Origin: a virus | Length of the DNA: 64,000 nucleotides | Virus record (IMG/VR): IMGVR_UViG_3300044695_003767 | Strand: one strand, 5' to 3' | Part shown: piece after piece, positions 3,129-11,748 of the stretch | How the letters are laid out: every line of letters begins with the position of its first letter | Numbering within the stretch: the first letter of the stretch is position 1 | The notes under the pieces: generated by a model | What the model saw: only the letters and a program-made list of their open reading frames with translations | Told to the model about the DNA's origin: nothing | The model's database searches: none | Position numbers and translations under genes: made by a program

Positions 3129-3494
3129 ATGGCTACTAAGAAAAACGAAAATGCTATGGGACAATTAATTCGTATATGTATCTTGGGTTGGTCTGCTGCT
3201 CTTCTCACTGCAAGTTATGCTGGTACTCTATCTAAGATGGATCCCACATTTATTGCGACTGTTTTCACTGCTTCTGCTGCCACTTTTGGCATCAATACAA
3301 TGAAGAAAGGTGGTGATGATGAAGATGAAAAGAAAGATCAACCAAAGAGAGAGGAGTTTGTAGAAACTCCACCAGAACCACCTTCCCCTGAAGTACCTGA
3401 ATCGTCACCAGAAACTCTTGAAGCAAGAGTTGAAGCACTTGAAACTAAAGTAGAAGATGGTGAAGGATTCGTTCAACCACGCACAGGAGCATAA
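3129..3494 (+). CDS. Two-TM membrane protein, holin candidate
   Basis: Two hydrophobic segments then an acidic/Pro-rich tail. Lies directly after the endolysins. Holin role is inference. Confidence 0.45.
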   Translation: MATKKNENAMGQLIRICILGWSAALLTASYAGTLSKMDPTFIATVFTASAATFGINTMKKGGDDEDEKKDQPKREEFVETPPEPPSPEVPESSPETLEARVEALETKVEDGEGFVQPRTGA

Positions 3495-3614: not shown

Positions 3615-3809
3615 ATGCCACGCGAATGGAATACTCCAATTCGACAACCTTGGAATCCTGTAATTAAAAAGTGCCTTGATGCTGTCGATGAGCACATCAA
3701 GGCATATATTAAAACAGGAGATGACTGGCACTTATCACAAGCAGAAATATTAAGAAAATATGTAAAAGATTTGAAGGTCTGGATACATAAACAAGAGGGG
3801 AGAGAATGA
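3615..3809 (+). CDS. Hypothetical protein
   Basis: GAGG RBS, 64 aa, coupled to the next gene. Confidence 0.65.
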   Translation: MPREWNTPIRQPWNPVIKKCLDAVDEHIKAYIKTGDDWHLSQAEILRKYVKDLKVWIHKQEGRE

Positions 3810-4552
3810 AGAAACTCTTTGCGGCATTTGGGTTATCATTAACTCTGGCATTTCCCGCATTTGCTAGTTCATTAGAAAAGAAGCAACCAACAGTCCCAGC
3901 ATACAGCCTTGCGTCGATGGGTTGTATGATACTCAGAGAATGTACAGAAGGAGTCGAACAACTTACACCAGATTCCACTACACTTTCTGATCCATCTTTT
4001 GATCCATTTAGAGAAGAGATCAAAAGTATTTTAACTGCTCTAAACAAAGTTAACGTTTCAGTATATATTGGGGAAAGTAGATACTTTACACCAAGAACAG
4101 TGGGGTTATATAAACCAAACTACAATCGTTTCTTTGTTAATGAAACTCTTCTTAAAGATCCAAGAGAGTTTCTAGGAACAATGAGACACGAAGGGTGGCA
4201 TGTTGTTCAGGATTGTATGGGTGGTGGAATAGAAACTTCTTTTATGGCACAGGTTCATCAAGATAATGAAATTCCATCCTGGGTAATGAAGACCACACGA
4301 CTTGCTTATGAATCTATGGGTCAGAGTCGTGCGGTTCCTTGGGAAGCCGATGCTAACTGGGCAGAAGAACAATCCAATGTAACTGCACAAAAGTTAGAAA
4401 TGTGTGCTAAAGGTCCATTATGGGAACAGATTCGACCAACACCAATGACAATGGAATGGTTGATTGGTTGTGGATGGATGAAATCACAAGAAGGTTATAA
4501 GGAATATACTCCAAATAAGAAATCGGAGTATTGTGTAGAAGGTAAATACTGA
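3806..4552 (+). CDS. Exported zincin-like metallopeptidase
   Basis: Sec signal peptide (MKKLFAAFGLSLTLAFPAFA). RHEGWHVVQD is an HExxH motif, with downstream WEADA. Confidence 0.7.
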   Translation: MKKLFAAFGLSLTLAFPAFASSLEKKQPTVPAYSLASMGCMILRECTEGVEQLTPDSTTLSDPSFDPFREEIKSILTALNKVNVSVYIGESRYFTPRTVGLYKPNYNRFFVNETLLKDPREFLGTMRHEGWHVVQDCMGGGIETSFMAQVHQDNEIPSWVMKTTRLAYESMGQSRAVPWEADANWAEEQSNVTAQKLEMCAKGPLWEQIRPTPMTMEWLIGCGWMKSQEGYKEYTPNKKSEYCVEGKY

Positions 4553-4704
4553 TGTCTGAGTTTCCGTGGGGAGTATTAATTATACTTGGATGTGGACTCA
4601 CTTTTGTAGCATATATCATTTACTACATATTAAGGTTAGCAGCATTGGAGATGAAAGATGAAAAACCTAGCAATCATTCTGTCAGCGACAAGTCTGGCGA
4701 TTAG
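4552..4704 (+). CDS. Small single-TM protein (not in ORF track)
   Basis: MSEFPWGVLIILGCGLTFVAYIIYYILRLAALEMKDEK..., TGATG overlap. Confidence 0.55.
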   Translation: MSEFPWGVLIILGCGLTFVAYIIYYILRLAALEMKDEKPSNHSVSDKSGD

Positions 4705-4870
4705 TGGAGCACTTTGTTATGGTGCTTATGTGACTTATCAAAAAGCACAAAAAATTCTGGACAACCCAGAAGAGTTTGTTGGTGCTGTTGTAGAGAAACA
4801 AGTTAACAAAGCATTTGAAAAACTACCTATTCCCAAACTAAATACTGGGAGTATTAAGTTTCCTTTCTGA
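4658..4870 (+). CDS. Small membrane-anchored hypothetical protein
   Basis: N-terminal hydrophobic helix; coupled to the next gene. Confidence 0.6.
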   Translation: MKNLAIILSATSLAISGALCYGAYVTYQKAQKILDNPEEFVGAVVEKQVNKAFEKLPIPKLNTGSIKFPF

Positions 4871-5685: not shown

Positions 5686-5819
5686 CTCAAGCACCAGTAA
5701 AAGATAAAGAAGAAAAAAGGGAAAAAGATAATATTTTTCTCGAAATACTTTATAATCTTTTAGTTCAATTACCAGCAATGGTTGTTGTGTGGATTATTTC
5801 TAAATTTACTTCAGATTGA
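5682..5819 (+). CDS. Small membrane hypothetical protein (not in ORF track)
   Basis: MTQAPVKDKEEKREKDNIFLEILYNLLVQLPAMVVVWIISKFTSD. ATGA overlap, TAAATA at 5651. Confidence 0.45.
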   Translation: MTQAPVKDKEEKREKDNIFLEILYNLLVQLPAMVVVWIISKFTSD

Positions 5820-6674
5820 GAACTTAGCAGATAATTTTTTAGCAATTTTTTTAGCAGGGGCAAAGAGAGACTTAAATCTTTCTTTGCCTTCTTTTGTAAA
5901 CTTATCTTTTATTACATCATCGATAATAATTTTATTATCAATTTCATAGAGAGTATTGATTTCAACTTGGTCACGAATGTATTGTTCTACATTAGTTACT
6001 TGCTCTACTAAACGAGTTCCTTCAGCAGAGTATTCAAAAACATCTACGTGACCACCTTCTGCTAGAACGTAATGTAGAACAGGTTTGACTTGTTTTATTT
6101 TAATTTTAAATTTATTTTTTGTTGCTTCTTTGATTAGTGGTTCTGCTGCATTTTTGAGAGCATTGAGAGCTGTTGTAGATGCTATTGTCGCAGCAGTGGT
6201 CACTACTGCGACAGCACCAGCCGTAGCAACAAGAGAAGGGTCAGGTAAATTAATATCGATTCCACCGACAGTAAAGGTTGGGGTAGTTGGTTTATCTGCT
6301 GGTATTTCAGCAATCGGTACTTGAGGAGGGGGGGTTTGAGCAACCTGAGGCAGTTGAGGTGGGGAGGTATCGGGCAATCCCCTCTCCTTTGGTTTTTCTT
6401 CCTGTTGTTGCTTTTCACGTTCTGCTTTTACGGCAGCATCAAACTCTGCTTGTGTTGGAACATTAATGATTGGATATTTGATTGAAGTATCTGGCATTTC
6501 AAATACTGGAAGTGCCATTCCACGAACAACTGGAACCTCTACACTACGAAGTACTGGTGGTTCTATTGTTGAAATAACATTAGGACCATTAATGCCAACC
6601 TTTGGTATTTGATTGGCATTGTTCTTTATATTGGCAATTCCGTTGGCATTATTTATTTGCTGTATTGGTTCCAT
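5811..6674 (-). CDS. Pro-rich single-TM protein, last gene of the minus-strand module
   Basis: Pro/Gln-rich N-half, hydrophobic segment SLVATAGAVAVVTTAATIA, basic C-terminal domain. Confidence 0.75.
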   Translation of the reverse strand: MEPIQQINNANGIANIKNNANQIPKVGINGPNVISTIEPPVLRSVEVPVVRGMALPVFEMPDTSIKYPIINVPTQAEFDAAVKAEREKQQQEEKPKERGLPDTSPPQLPQVAQTPPPQVPIAEIPADKPTTPTFTVGGIDINLPDPSLVATAGAVAVVTTAATIASTTALNALKNAAEPLIKEATKNKFKIKIKQVKPVLHYVLAEGGHVDVFEYSAEGTRLVEQVTNVEQYIRDQVEINTLYEIDNKIIIDDVIKDKFTKEGKERFKSLFAPAKKIAKKLSAKFSI

Positions 6675-7221
6675 TTGGATACCTCACAACTACGTCAGCG
6701 CAAATTTTATAATATGGACTTTCTGGATGAAATGAAAGACCCGATTTATATGCTTCACCACACTTCAGCAATCTAACTAATTCAAAATCTAATCTTGCCT
6801 TATCAGTTTCTGCTTGTTGTCTTTTGATTTCTGTTCGTGCTCTTTCTTTACATAATTCAGTTAAACTTCCATCCAAAGGAAAGTTGAATCCCATACTGAT
6901 ACCTGCATTACCATTATGTGTTTGAAATGCTTCTGGATCAGCACTACCATTCATATTTCCCAATACAAATGGCGATATACTCATTGTTGGACCTTGACAA
7001 GATACTCCACCACCATAGGTATTCATAGCATAAGGACCTTGTAATACCTGAACTGCCTGATTGGTTACATTACCAGTAGCAGATGCCGAAGGACCTGCAA
7101 TATTTGTATTACTTGGTGCTTGTTGTGCCCTACCTGATGCAGTTAATAAGAGAATTATTATTGGGTAAATACAGAAACCGAGTTTGTGGTAGATTGTTGT
7201 TCTGTTGTTCTGTCTATCCAT
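6649..7221 (-). CDS. Exported protein with beta-rich core and C-terminal coiled coil
   Basis: Signal-like IIILLLTASGRA-QQ, amphipathic strands (GNAGISMGFNFPL), then a Cys-flanked helix (LCKERARTEIKRQQ...LLKCGE). Confidence 0.75.
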   Translation of the reverse strand: MDRQNNRTTIYHKLGFCIYPIIILLLTASGRAQQAPSNTNIAGPSASATGNVTNQAVQVLQGPYAMNTYGGGVSCQGPTMSISPFVLGNMNGSADPEAFQTHNGNAGISMGFNFPLDGSLTELCKERARTEIKRQQAETDKARLDFELVRLLKCGEAYKSGLSFHPESPYYKICADVVVRYPNGTNTANK

Positions 7222-7523
7222 GTTTCTTTGGCCACTCCAGTGCCTAGTATTGTCTCACTAAACTGGAAGGGAGCACCTTGATCCATAATAGTATAATTTG
7301 CTCCTTGTTGTGGAGTGCCAGGAATCTTAATATTAGTTCCAGTCACAGTATATGATGTGCCAGTTGTATATTCAACTTGCCGAATAGTTTCTACAATCTT
7401 TGTAGTTGTTTCTGTTGTCGCATTAATAGTACCCCTAGTAAAATTGGGAACTACTTGTTCAGCATAAACGGGAGTACAAATGACTCCCGTTGCTAAAAGC
7501 AAAACGGGAGTTATGTATCTCAT
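7158..7523 (-). CDS. Exported Thr-rich beta protein, paralog of 7520..7981
   Basis: Signal peptide ending VYA. Shares SYxxxGTNI, GxxFxFSE and C-terminal SVF with the upstream gene. Confidence 0.75.
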   Translation of the reverse strand: MRYITPVLLLATGVICTPVYAEQVVPNFTRGTINATTETTTKIVETIRQVEYTTGTSYTVTGTNIKIPGTPQQGANYTIMDQGAPFQFSETILGTGVAKETWIDRTTEQQSTTNSVSVFTQ

Positions 7524-7981
7524 TTGAATACGCTCAGTTCAATACTACGTTGTGCAGTTGCTGTGGTTCCAGGACCACCAGCAGTGACTGTAGGAACACC
7601 AGTAGGTGATAATGTACCAGCGAGAGAACCCTTGTCTCCTGCTAACTGAGTAACACTATCCCCATAAAGGTTGGGAGAAGCAATAACTCCACCACTGACC
7701 GACTGAGTGGTGACTGGTGTATCAGCAGCATTAAAGCTTTCTGAGAAACTGAATGCTTGACCTGCTGTATTAACGTCATAAGTCCCAGCACCATTCACTC
7801 CACCAAAGGAGGTTGATTGAATATTTGTACCTGAAGCAGAATATGATGCTCCAATTCTAGTTGATTGTACCGCAGCACCCTGAACACCAAGTTGAACAGA
7901 ATCAGTAATTTTTGATGTAATTTCAGCAGCACTTACAGGAGTAATGAAGAATAACGAAGAGATTAGAAGTAATCTTTTCAT
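7520..7981 (-). CDS. Exported Ser/Thr/Gly-rich beta protein (putative major fibre subunit)
   Basis: Signal peptide MKRLLLISSLFFITPVSA. Minus-strand late promoter CTAAATA at 8016-8010. Confidence 0.75.
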   Translation of the reverse strand: MKRLLLISSLFFITPVSAAEITSKITDSVQLGVQGAAVQSTRIGASYSASGTNIQSTSFGGVNGAGTYDVNTAGQAFSFSESFNAADTPVTTQSVSGGVIASPNLYGDSVTQLAGDKGSLAGTLSPTGVPTVTAGGPGTTATAQRSIELSVFK

Positions 7982-8008: not shown

Positions 8009-8072
8009 ATATTTAGGTTTAATACTCTTTCAAATTCTATTTCTTGACAAAACCTAAATATTAACTTATTAT
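8009..8072. promoter_or_regulatory. Divergent late promoters plus a sigma70 promoter
   Basis: ATATTTAGGTTT (8009-8020) and AAACCTAAATAT (8050-8061) are a 12-bp inverted repeat, each copy containing CTAAATA. TTGACA(8044)-N17-TATTAT(8067) on the + strand. Confidence 0.65.
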
Positions 8073-8124
8073 GAATAAACCCGACACTAGTGTCGGGTTT
8101 CACATTATGAGTCTTTGATGTGAC

Positions 8125-8196
8125 AATTAGAGCCGTGGAAGGTGCCTCCCGAGAGGGTTGGTATACCCCCCTTCTATACGGATGTAGAGTTCAATT
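8125..8196 (+). ncRNA. Candidate structured 5' leader RNA, family not recognised
   Basis: GC-rich nested stems: AATT-GAGC/GTTC-AATT, CCGTG/TACGG, GAAGG/CCTTC, TGCC/GGTA, and CCC-GAGA-GGG with a GNRA tetraloop. Ends just before ATG 8204. Confidence 0.45.
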
Positions 8197-8203
8197 AAAA
8201 TTA

Positions 8204-8836
8204 ATGCAACAATTCTTTACTGTAGCCCTGCCCCTTCTGGCATCGGTTACAACCAATATGGCAACACTGCCGATATTTCCTCCTTTGACGACACCACCGG
8301 TGCCGTTTTCTGTTATTAAGGAGTTTGAAACTACGACAGCGACCAAAGAGGTTGCTCCCGAAAAGCCAAAAGAGAAAAGGCTAATTTGTAAAGGGTGTTC
8401 AGAATATGAATCGCTTGCCTTGGAATTTTTCCAAGATCAAGGAATTAAAGACAGAAACGCCCTTGCTACTATCCTGGGCAATATTAAGCAAGAATCTATG
8501 TTCGTGCCTAATATTTGTGAAGGTGGTAGTAGGACTCAGTACCATCACTGCGGTCGTGGTTATGGTCTGATCCAATGGACATCTGCCGATCGTTATTATG
8601 GATTGGGTGAATTTGCTAAGAAGTTTGGTGGTTCTCCATCAGCACTTCCAACGCAACTTCGTTATCTGACGAATGAAGTTCAATGGAAACGAATCGAAGA
8701 CCGAATGAAAACTCCTGGTAAGTCTATCGATCGCTACATGAACTATGCGTACAGTTGGATTGGTTGGGGCATTCATGGTGCTCGTACATCTTATGCTCAT
8801 GAATATGCCAACCGACTGATCACGGTAGAGGTTTGA
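8204..8836 (+). CDS. Phage tail lysozyme (Phage_lysozyme2-like) muralytic enzyme with N-terminal signal/anchor
   Basis: ALATILGNIKQES, GYGLIQWT, QLRYL. ATG 8204 preferred over GTG 8120, which lies in the RNA structure. Confidence 0.8.
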   Translation: MQQFFTVALPLLASVTTNMATLPIFPPLTTPPVPFSVIKEFETTTATKEVAPEKPKEKRLICKGCSEYESLALEFFQDQGIKDRNALATILGNIKQESMFVPNICEGGSRTQYHHCGRGYGLIQWTSADRYYGLGEFAKKFGGSPSALPTQLRYLTNEVQWKRIEDRMKTPGKSIDRYMNYAYSWIGWGIHGARTSYAHEYANRLITVEV

Positions 8837-10192: not shown

Positions 10193-10260
10193 TCCTAAAT
10201 AACGAAGATTTGCCTTGTTGTAAATCTTTACATTGTCGTTTAGTACACAAAAACATTTTT

Positions 10261-11748
10261 ATGAAACTCAAACAACTGATGCTTGCACCTGTTGCTCTGG
10301 GAATGGTTGCTCCTGTTGCTGCGAATGCCGCAGACCTTAATATGGCAGCAGTCAACCAATATTCCACTTCGGAACAAGTCACAAGCATTACTCAACTGTC
10401 TGATGTCCAACCCTCGGATTGGGCGTATCAGGCCCTCAGCAACCTTGTGGATCGTTATGGTTGCGTGGCAGGATATCCTAACGGAACCTTTGGTGGTGGT
10501 AAGGCAATGACCCGTTATGAGGCAGCAGCACTTCTGAATGCTTGCTTGGATCGTGTAACCGAAGTGACTGATGAACTTCAACGTCTTTCAAAAGAGTTTT
10601 CTGAAGAACTTCTAGTTATTCGTGGTCGTGTTGATAAACTAGAAGCACAAGTTGGTCAACTTCAAGCAACTCAGTTCTCCACTACATCTAAACTTCGTGG
10701 TGAAGCAACCTTCGTTCTTGGTGGTGTAGAAGGTGCTCGTCTTGCTAACGGAACTAACGTTGGTAACACCGCTTTCAACTATGATGTTCGTCTGAACTTT
10801 GATACTTCTTTCACTGGTAAGGATTTGCTGAAGACTCGTCTGCGTTCTGGTAATTTCTCCAGTCAACCCTTTGGTTCTTCCTCGTCTCTGTTCAAACTGG
10901 ATAAGGCAGAAAGCACTTCCAATCAAGTGCAACTTGACCGTCTGTACTACCAGTTCCCTGCTCTCACTAAAGGTCTTAATCTGACTGCTGGTGCTTTGGT
11001 TCGTAACACTGAGATGTCATGGATTCCTACTGCATATAAGTCTGACATTCTCGACTTCTTTGCTGTTGCTGGTGCTCCTGGTGTCTATAACAAGGCAACT
11101 GGTTCTGGTTTCGGTGCTCAATGGGCACAACCTACTAAGAAAGGTAAGGGTGGTTTCGTTGCTGGTGTCAACTATGTGGCACAGAACGGTTCTGATTCCA
11201 CCAAAGGTGAATTTGATGCTGCTGGTGCTCTGAATACTCTGGCACAGATCGGTTATCGTGCTCCTCAGTACGGTATTGCATTCGGTTATCGTAATGGTAC
11301 TGAAGGAACTCGTATTCGTACCTTTAATGGTGTTGCTGGTAATGGTGGTACTCTTGCTGCTAATCAAACCTCCAACGGTTATGCTCTGAATGCTTACTGG
11401 CAACCCAAGAAGTCTGGTATCATTCCTTCTGTGAGTGGTGCTTATGGGTGGAACACTGTAGAAGGTCCTGCTACTCCCAAGGCTGCTACTAAGTCCGAGA
11501 CTTGGTTTGCTGGTCTTCAATGGGCAGATGTATTTGCCAAGGGTAATGCTGCTGGTTTCGCTATCGGTGCCCCTGGTAATGCTGCTTCCCTCACTAAGGA
11601 TGCTCTGATGTGGGAAACCTTCTATCGTTATCGTGTGAGTGACAACATTAGTATCACTCCTGCTGTGTTCTATGTGTCCAACAACCAAGGTCTGAAGAAT
11701 GCTTCTTCTAACTACGGCGGTGTGATTCAGACAACCTTCCGTTTCTGA
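10261..11748 (+). CDS. Cyanobacterial outer-membrane porin (SLH domain + OprB-type barrel; Som family)
   Basis: Signal peptide; SLH motif LSDVQPSDWAYQALSNLVDRYGCVAGYPNGTF...TRYEAAA; coiled coil; FSTTSKLRGE; C-terminal GVIQTTFRF. Confidence 0.92.
   Translation: MKLKQLMLAPVALGMVAPVAANAADLNMAAVNQYSTSEQVTSITQLSDVQPSDWAYQALSNLVDRYGCVAGYPNGTFGGGKAMTRYEAAALLNACLDRVTEVTDELQRLSKEFSEELLVIRGRVDKLEAQVGQLQATQFSTTSKLRGEATFVLGGVEGARLANGTNVGNTAFNYDVRLNFDTSFTGKDLLKTRLRSGNFSSQPFGSSSSLFKLDKAESTSNQVQLDRLYYQFPALTKGLNLTAGALVRNTEMSWIPTAYKSDILDFFAVAGAPGVYNKATGSGFGAQWAQPTKKGKGGFVAGVNYVAQNGSDSTKGEFDAAGALNTLAQIGYRAPQYGIAFGYRNGTEGTRIRTFNGVAGNGGTLAANQTSNGYALNAYWQPKKSGIIPSVSGAYGWNTVEGPATPKAATKSETWFAGLQWADVFAKGNAAGFAIGAPGNAASLTKDALMWETFYRYRVSDNISITPAVFYVSNNQGLKNASSNYGGVIQTTFRF

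Follow-up and report, generated by a model that had tools for sequence, protein, structure and literature searches.

A conserved gene module of picocyanobacterial phages, with predicted export signals and a late-promoter motif, as a candidate for outer-membrane opening at lysis

In phages of other Gram-negative hosts, disruption of the outer membrane is the job of spanins, late-made envelope proteins that act after the holin and endolysin and that consist of two components, as for lambda Rz/Rz1, T7 gp18.5/18.7 and T4 PseT.3/PseT.2, or of one, as for the unimolecular spanin of T1. Cyanophage lysis of Prochlorococcus and Synechococcus frees a large share of marine fixed carbon, and our literature searches found no paper on how these cyanophages open the host outer membrane. 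Here we describe a cassette of four minus-strand genes at positions 5811–7981 of a 64,000-nucleotide (nt) stretch of viral DNA (IMG/VR record IMGVR_UViG_3300044695_003767), which we call the window. An initial annotation, made from the letters of this stretch, had read the cassette as a secreted fiber system with the logic of curli (CsgA/B/F/G) or Fap. These systems likewise combine a Sec-exported, paralogous pair of beta proteins rich in Ser, Thr, Gly, Gln and Asn with further exported proteins. We find that the cassette is, as judged by homology, the freshwater copy of a module of picocyanobacterial phages (T4-GC 234–237 together with DUF6450/T4-GC 218). It is quite possible, though short of probable, that its products form an exported, envelope-spanning assembly that acts alongside a holin and endolysin in rupturing the envelope at lysis.

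The source of the window is a freshwater-type, T4-like cyanophage; elsewhere, the stretch carries psbA/psbD-type genes, gnd, sugar genes and tail-fiber genes. The closest cultured records are Synechococcus phages DSL-LC03 and DSL-LC02, with ~80–88% nucleotide identity across parts of the region. The four open reading frames (ORFs) of the cassette are g1 (7520–7981; 153 amino acids [aa]), g2 (7158–7523; 121 aa), g3 (6649–7221; 190 aa) and g4 (5811–6674; 287 aa). All are on the minus strand, and neighbors overlap by 4 nt (g1/g2), 64 nt (g2/g3) and 26 nt (g3/g4), in agreement with the overlapping four-gene arrangement first noticed. The cassette had also been called the sole minus-strand operon here. 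The window has 76 ORFs of at least 100 aa. The minus strand encodes 21 of them, four being those of the cassette; none of six others matched PHROGs when scanned (0/6), which is consistent with the claim but covers only 6 of the 17 non-cassette ORFs concerned. In one metatranscriptome run, a single 186-nt contig fell within g1 (7590–7775), which is insufficient as a sign of expression.

The gene set is already in print. Hidden Markov models (HMMs) built from the window's four families match Syn9 gp164, gp165, gp166 and gp167 with E values of 1e-34 to 1e-86, and T4-GC 237, 236, 235 and 234 (Syn9 gp167–164) are g1, g2, g3 and g4, respectively. This assignment uses the Syn9 coordinates, which fit the table of Sullivan et al. 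(2010; PMC3037559) after a 661-nt shift, and the notes in the P-SSM7 record; the latter, with Syn9 gp161, also identify DUF6450 as the T4-GC 218 family. The passages of that paper on these genes describe a cluster of hypothetical proteins (T4-GC 218, 219, 234, 235 and 237) present in all but one of 16 cyanomyoviruses, and the authors propose functional reasons for the clustering. In the accompanying table, T4-GC 234–237 have no entry in ten non-cyanophage T4-like phages. The column headed "Existence of Proteomic Data?", which is based on the virion proteomes of S-SM1, S-PM2 and Syn9, is empty for all four, and an empty cell in this table is negative evidence only. In contrast to the present account, those passages assign no function and mention no export signals, paralogy or T7-like version. 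The window also differs from the Syn9-type cluster: its g4 is co-directional with and overlaps g3, and T4-GC 219, part of the published cluster, is absent. No literature was found on DUF6322 (the family of g1 and g2) or T4-GC234-237 by name or on the function of Syn9 gp165–167. The titles and abstracts listed for cyanophage spanins and holins contained nothing on the cassette, nor did a term search of two transcriptome papers bring up its genes. In BFVD, all five matches at E ≤0.001 were to uncharacterized or unnamed proteins.

The module is common to hundreds of picocyanobacterial phages of three types. A word-based search returned 1366 relatives of g3, and 317 were found among cluster representatives at E ≤0.001. 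Relatives of g3 occur in 461 phage records, which sort, by the first word of the organism name, into Synechococcus (312), Cyanophage (80), Prochlorococcus (56), Marine (9), uncultured (3) and Tiamatvirus (1). As tblastn with single proteins was insensitive (43 records for g2 and 4 for g4), the synteny counts rest on HMMs. Among the best 80 of at least 600 myovirus-type matches, 74 loci contain DUF6322 ORFs, the remaining six having g3 at the locus edge; 78 contain the g4 family, and 68 have DUF6450 no more than 4 kb from g3. In these 78 loci, g4 is co-directional with g3 in 31 and opposite in 47, the latter including all 35 marine-type loci, where the two genes converge, as for Syn9 gp164. T7-like (podovirus-type) loci were likewise the best 80 of at least 600 matches, to which KBS-P-1A and P-SSP6 were added (82 in total). 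The order g4-like, DUF6450, one DUF6322 gene, g3 holds in 68 of the 82, and per 80 loci the same families occur in 67, 68, 76 and 80, respectively. The T7-like module sits immediately before terS/terL (terS follows it in 74/80 loci), with tail-fiber genes upstream wherever the contig extends that far. The four-gene synteny survey proposed in the initial annotation thus shows that the families co-occur, down to the g4 family in 78/80 myovirus-type and 67/80 podovirus-type loci.

In a quick tree of g3, in which the group labels are those of the scan that fetched each locus, the podovirus-type rows form one side of a branch with Shimodaira-Hasegawa-like approximate likelihood ratio test (SH-aLRT) support of 100, which suggests that the module has long been resident in both lineages. 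The g3 of S-SKS1 (locus L005, 2842–3690), recorded as a Llyrvirus and not in the myovirus or podovirus families to which the other records belong, nests in the marine myovirus clade next to loci L068 and L072 (SH-aLRT 100), suggesting that the module has been transferred between phage types. No cellular homologs were found when one genome each of 185,579 species was scanned with the g2 alignment. The 11 loci recovered were all on contigs of metagenome-assembled genomes or single cells, and both of the two checked are phage DNA: a single-cell contig labeled Prochlorococcus (L093) matches Prochlorococcus phage MED4-213 at 83% identity along 52% of the contig, and one labeled Synechococcus (L094) contains a T7-like terminase gene.

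The late promoter attributed to the cassette in the initial annotation finds support in a T4-type late-promoter-like motif, CTAAATA, on the minus strand at 8010–8016, 28 nt upstream of the g1 ATG (the T4 late-promoter consensus is TATAAATA). TAAATA precedes the first DUF6322 ORF by no more than 120 nt in 49 of the 55 related loci with upstream sequence, usually at positions −29 to −35, and several of the six misses are ORF starts that were set too far upstream by our script. The supplementary entries of Sullivan et al. (2010; PMC3037559) for S-ShM2 and S-SSM7 list reverse-strand "T4-like late promoter" motifs at 140293 and 182726, which sit 36 and 15 nt, respectively, upstream of the T4-GC237 genes. 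Two further elements were noted in this region. A perfect palindromic hairpin, AAACCCGACAC..GTGTCGGGTTT, lies at 8077–8100, just upstream of the cassette promoter motif. A near-consensus sigma-70-type promoter (TTGACA-17-TATTAT, 11/12) at 8044–8072 points away from the cassette and faces a PF18013 "phage tail lysozyme" gene (8120–8836).

The products of g1 (phrog_564) and g2 (phrog_650) are, by sequence comparison, paralogs of Pfam family DUF6322 (PF19847), in keeping with the hidden paralogy suspected earlier. BLASTP aligns them at E 8e-5 with 26% identity over 88 aa, and hhalign of the two family alignments gives a probability of 96.4% and E 1.2e-9 across SY(S/T)xxGTNI...GxxFxFSE(S/T). The g2 protein passes the DUF6322 model (45.3 bits; cut-off 30.6). 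The g1 protein itself has no Pfam match at E 0.1, and PF19847.5 is precomputed for all 120 close g1 homologs among the matches listed. Export was judged from the sequence, by a basic start, a hydrophobic core and a cleavage-like site (AxA-type in g1 and g2); the putative sites are VSA/AE in g1, VYA/EQ in g2 and GRA/QQ in g3. The hydrophobic core is present in 27/27 members of the g1 family and 28/28 of the g2 family, so that the Sec signal peptides first assigned to both proteins hold on this reading. Their reported richness in Ser, Thr, Gly and Gln also stands, as these residues together with Asn make up 51% of each mature protein. Neither mature protein contains Cys; the sole Cys of g2, which is not conserved, belongs to the signal region, where its surroundings (GVIC) do not form a lipobox.

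A structure model of g2 (predicted local distance difference test [pLDDT] 78, predicted template modeling score 0.34) is a long beta-hairpin sheet, with strands at 30–53, 57–63, 87–93 and 96–120, the longest of them 24–25 residues. Foldseek found one PDB match at E ≤0.001, the upper tail of phage Andhra (8.5e-4; template modeling score [TM] 0.24). Below it ranked the tails of phi29 and P68, next the pores of anthrax protective antigen, lysenin, aerolysin, CDTb and iota, and finally flagellar ring collars. A very long beta-hairpin is common to the g2 monomer model and to the stems of such pore-forming toxins (lysenin, aerolysin, anthrax protective antigen) and phage tail collars (phi29, P68, Andhra). 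The scores are too low to claim a relationship, and there is at most a weak resemblance of the modeled g2 to the kind of hairpin from which oligomeric barrels, rings or stacks are normally made. As read from the sequence, the g2 strands are polar, Thr-rich and not lipid-facing.

The g3 protein (phrog_848/1755) is a predicted exported protein with a TGxVTNQAVQ motif and four conserved Cys. Across 45 aligned sequences, N54, C75, P115, R150, C154, G161 and C174 are invariant and C124 nearly so; in 37 of the 38 relatives in which our script found the motif, four Cys follow it. This conservation fits an extracytoplasmic, disulfide-bonded protein. The residues around the putative cleavage site read ...TASGRA/QQ and include no Cys, hence no lipobox. 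In the AlphaFold model (pLDDT 67), an N-terminal helix is followed by a disordered but conserved stretch (28–62), a hairpin of two 13-residue strands (within 66–113) and a 42-residue helix (118–159), at either end of which lie C124 and C154. The initial annotation had given g3 amphipathic strands and a Cys-flanked coiled coil. Export, strands and a Cys-flanked helix are all found here, but the coiled coil remains a prediction because heptad periodicity is not clear. A g3 profile had no matches among PDB sequences at E 10, and a search of the ESM Atlas returned only viral hypothetical clusters. The top Foldseek rows for g3 were TolC-type chains (E 0.2, TM 0.14; none significant). In the g3 model a beta-hairpin precedes a long helix, the point of comparison with the outer-membrane factor TolC, but since neither a structural nor a sequence match is significant, we do not call g3 TolC-like. 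A Foldseek-independent search matched a single helix only, there was no match to the Pfam OEP family, and the candidate was set aside for lack of support.

The g4 protein (phrog_9426/570) comprises a conserved N-terminal part, a Pro-rich linker, a single hydrophobic segment (residues 147–166 of 287) and a basic tail. With 9.4% Pro and one predicted membrane segment, it fits its first description as a Pro-rich, membrane-anchored protein. In the shorter marine forms, the hydrophobic segment is near the C terminus, with the basic tail after it. The protein shows neither an N-terminal signal nor a lipobox, and an NCBIfam scan gave only sub-threshold FliX noise. That g4 might lie outside the conserved set, as the small ORFs downstream of g3 in DSL-LC03 had implied, was overturned by the HMM survey.

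A series of plus-strand genes converges on the cassette, encoding a C39_2 enzyme, a lysozyme, DUF6450, a phrog_591 protein, two small membrane proteins and, last, a staphylococcal-type nuclease. The Peptidase_C39_2-type enzyme (1669–2340; endolysin phrog_10051) and the phage lysozyme (2439–3110; PF00959) have in common an N-terminal stretch of 57–58 residues, of which the first ~30 are nearly identical (local alignment score 180), and they match the two halves of phrog_3617 (positions 1–232 and 245–404). From these alignments, the pair looks like a fused two-enzyme endolysin that was split into two genes, each retaining the N-terminal module. The lysozyme stop codon is 19 nt before the gene for the 121-aa DUF6450 protein (3129–3494; PF20048; Syn9 gp161 family), which combines a charged tail with two segments of weak hydrophobicity. 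These features fit a holin, although family scans gave no holin family match for DUF6450.

What is the module for? The set is conserved, confined to phages and made of predicted exported and membrane proteins; it has a late-promoter motif, is linked to DUF6450 and, in the window, adjoins endolysin-type genes. One possibility is that g1, g2 and g3 are exported through Sec late in infection. At the outer membrane, or within it, the helical g3, with its disulfide bonds, would then join the two long-hairpin DUF6322 proteins in an assembly. The g4 protein would be anchored in the inner membrane through its one hydrophobic segment, with the Pro-rich linker reaching the DUF6322 and g3 proteins. Once the holin-like DUF6450 protein and the endolysins had removed the wall, this envelope-spanning assembly would breach the outer membrane, doing the work of spanins with unrelated parts and without a lipoprotein. 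We infer every step of this mechanism from homology, gene linkage, the promoter motif and features of the sequences.

Beyond the proposed role, there are other likenesses to spanins. Like i-spanins, g3 has a helical segment with conserved Cys, and like the unimolecular spanin, g4 has its membrane segment toward the C terminus. The T7-like module is placed beside the terminase genes, where T7 has its holin gene 17.5 and spanin genes 18.5/18.7. However, there is no sequence similarity, g1, g2 and g3 lack the lipobox of the small lipoprotein that defines an o-spanin, no embedded or overlapped pair of the Rz/Rz1 type is present, and there are three to four components instead of one or two, among them beta-hairpin proteins that have no spanin counterpart. 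As an i-spanin, g3 gives a mixed picture, with an N-terminal hydrophobic segment, a 42-residue helix and conserved Cys on one side and a signal-peptidase-type site, unclear heptads and no spanin family match on the other; g4 lacks the N-terminal lipoprotein signal of a unimolecular spanin of the T1 gp11 type.

Several observations weigh against a role in lysis. Neither sequence nor profile comparison relates the cassette to a holin, spanin, disruptin or other lysis family, and the label "holin-like" for DUF6450 comes from features only, with both segments below the hydropathy threshold that we used. A lysozyme gene is within 4 kb of g3 in only 15 of the 80 myovirus-type loci, and in Syn9 and P-SSM7 the neighbors of the module are hsp20, regA and DNA polymerase. 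Late promoters drive virion genes, too. Finally, the topology of g4 is awkward: by the positive-inside rule, its basic tail would be cytoplasmic and its N-terminal part of ~150 residues would be periplasmic, without a signal peptide to take it there.

If the products instead formed a secreted surface fiber of the curli, Fap or pilus kind, g1 and g2 would polymerize as its subunits, g3 would serve as the pore through the outer membrane and g4 would act as anchor. The predicted export, composition and paralogy of g1 and g2 suit such subunits, and the long hairpin of the g2 model could stack. However, the sole Pfam matches of g1–g4 at E 0.1 were DUF6322 for g2 and, below threshold, DUF1367 for g4, and there was none to the Curlin repeat (PF07012), CsgE, CsgF, CsgG, Fap, fimbrial, usher, secretin or pilin families. 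Searches of Pfam, PHROG and NCBIfam likewise gave no chaperone-usher or type IV pilus family (usher, chaperone, pilin, secretin). The curli channel is a lipoprotein, with a lipobox Cys at +1 that g3 lacks. T7-like cyanophages have a single DUF6322 gene, so a pair of major and minor subunits is not general, and no cellular relatives were found in the species scan. Moreover, with the late expression that the promoter motif predicts and with linkage to a holin-like gene and endolysins, a fiber would arise shortly before the cell bursts. The holin-like gene in the module, the two endolysin-type genes beside it here and the late-promoter motif favor lysis over a surface appendage. The proposed division into major subunit, nucleator, pore and anchor drew no fiber, usher, secretin or CsgG match and is unsupported, and a secreted fiber now appears very unlikely.

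It is also conceivable that the proteins act before lysis as a channel or pore through the outer membrane, for example to take up nutrients or for export; such an auxiliary role would compare with that of the porin encoded in the window (with SLH and OprB domains). In favor of a channel, the g2 hairpin resembles the stems of pore-forming and ring proteins, and pstS adjoins the module in P-SSM7 and S-SKS1. We regard a channel as unlikely, given that the structural matches are weak, the g2 strands do not have a lipid-facing character, and the late-promoter motif and holin-like partner suit lysis better; near-universal presence across three phage types also suggests a core step of the life cycle and not an auxiliary gene. 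Superinfection exclusion or receptor masking, in which an altered envelope would keep further phages or released progeny from adsorbing to infected cells or debris, would account for envelope-directed, phage-specific products with predicted export that are conserved in phages with common hosts. The exclusion genes of T4 and T5 are expressed early, whereas the cassette has a late-promoter motif, and four to five components seem elaborate for masking. None of seven proteins matched PADLOC, a library of host defense systems and not of phage exclusion genes. Exclusion is, on balance, quite unlikely. Most improbable of all is that these are virion or assembly proteins with incidentally hydrophobic N termini. 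Such proteins could have a late-promoter motif, and the T7-like genes do lie between tail-fiber and terminase genes, but the signal-peptide-like N termini and four conserved Cys point outside the cytoplasm, and T4-GC 234–237 carry no mark of virion proteomic data in the table of Sullivan et al. (2010; PMC3037559). With products that are predicted to be exported or membrane bound, action at the host envelope, as the initial annotation proposed, remains the natural reading. The probability that is left belongs to functions not yet thought of.

A bolder proposal is that nearly all Prochlorococcus and Synechococcus phages, whether T4-like or T7-like, open the outer membrane by means of a multi-protein device that contains no lipoprotein and is made of DUF6322 hairpins, a disulfide-bonded helical protein and a Pro-rich inner-membrane anchor, with DUF6450 as holin trigger; this is possible, although we would expect it to fail more readily than to hold. 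If it did hold, the device would be a further class of phage outer-membrane disruption, beside spanins and disruptin-type peptides, and one active in some of the ocean's most abundant virus-host pairs. The module is in any case a concrete, testable candidate for outer-membrane opening, being conserved, phage-only and linked to a holin-like gene, with export signals and a late-promoter motif. Should its role prove to be that of a channel, fiber or exclusion system, it would still be among the most widespread uncharacterized envelope systems of marine viruses.

Other features of the surrounding DNA can be noted. Between DUF6450 and the cassette, on the plus strand, are genes for a Cys-rich 248-aa protein with a clear signal peptide, predicted to be exported (3806–4552; phrog_591), a small membrane protein (4552–4704) and a small protein with an N-terminal membrane segment (4658–4870; Syn9 gp162 family). 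Relatives of phrog_591 are found near g3 in 34 of the 80 myovirus-type loci. Just upstream of the wall-enzyme genes, also on the plus strand, is a SegE-type GIY-YIG homing endonuclease gene (1079–1528; PF19835, E 5.5e-52). The cyanobacterial-type outer-membrane porin gene is at 10210–11748 on the plus strand, with SLH (PF00395, E 2e-8) followed by OprB (PF04966, E 3e-14). In DSL-LC03, an ORF annotated "autotransporter outer membrane beta-barrel" lies in the neighborhood of the lysis genes.

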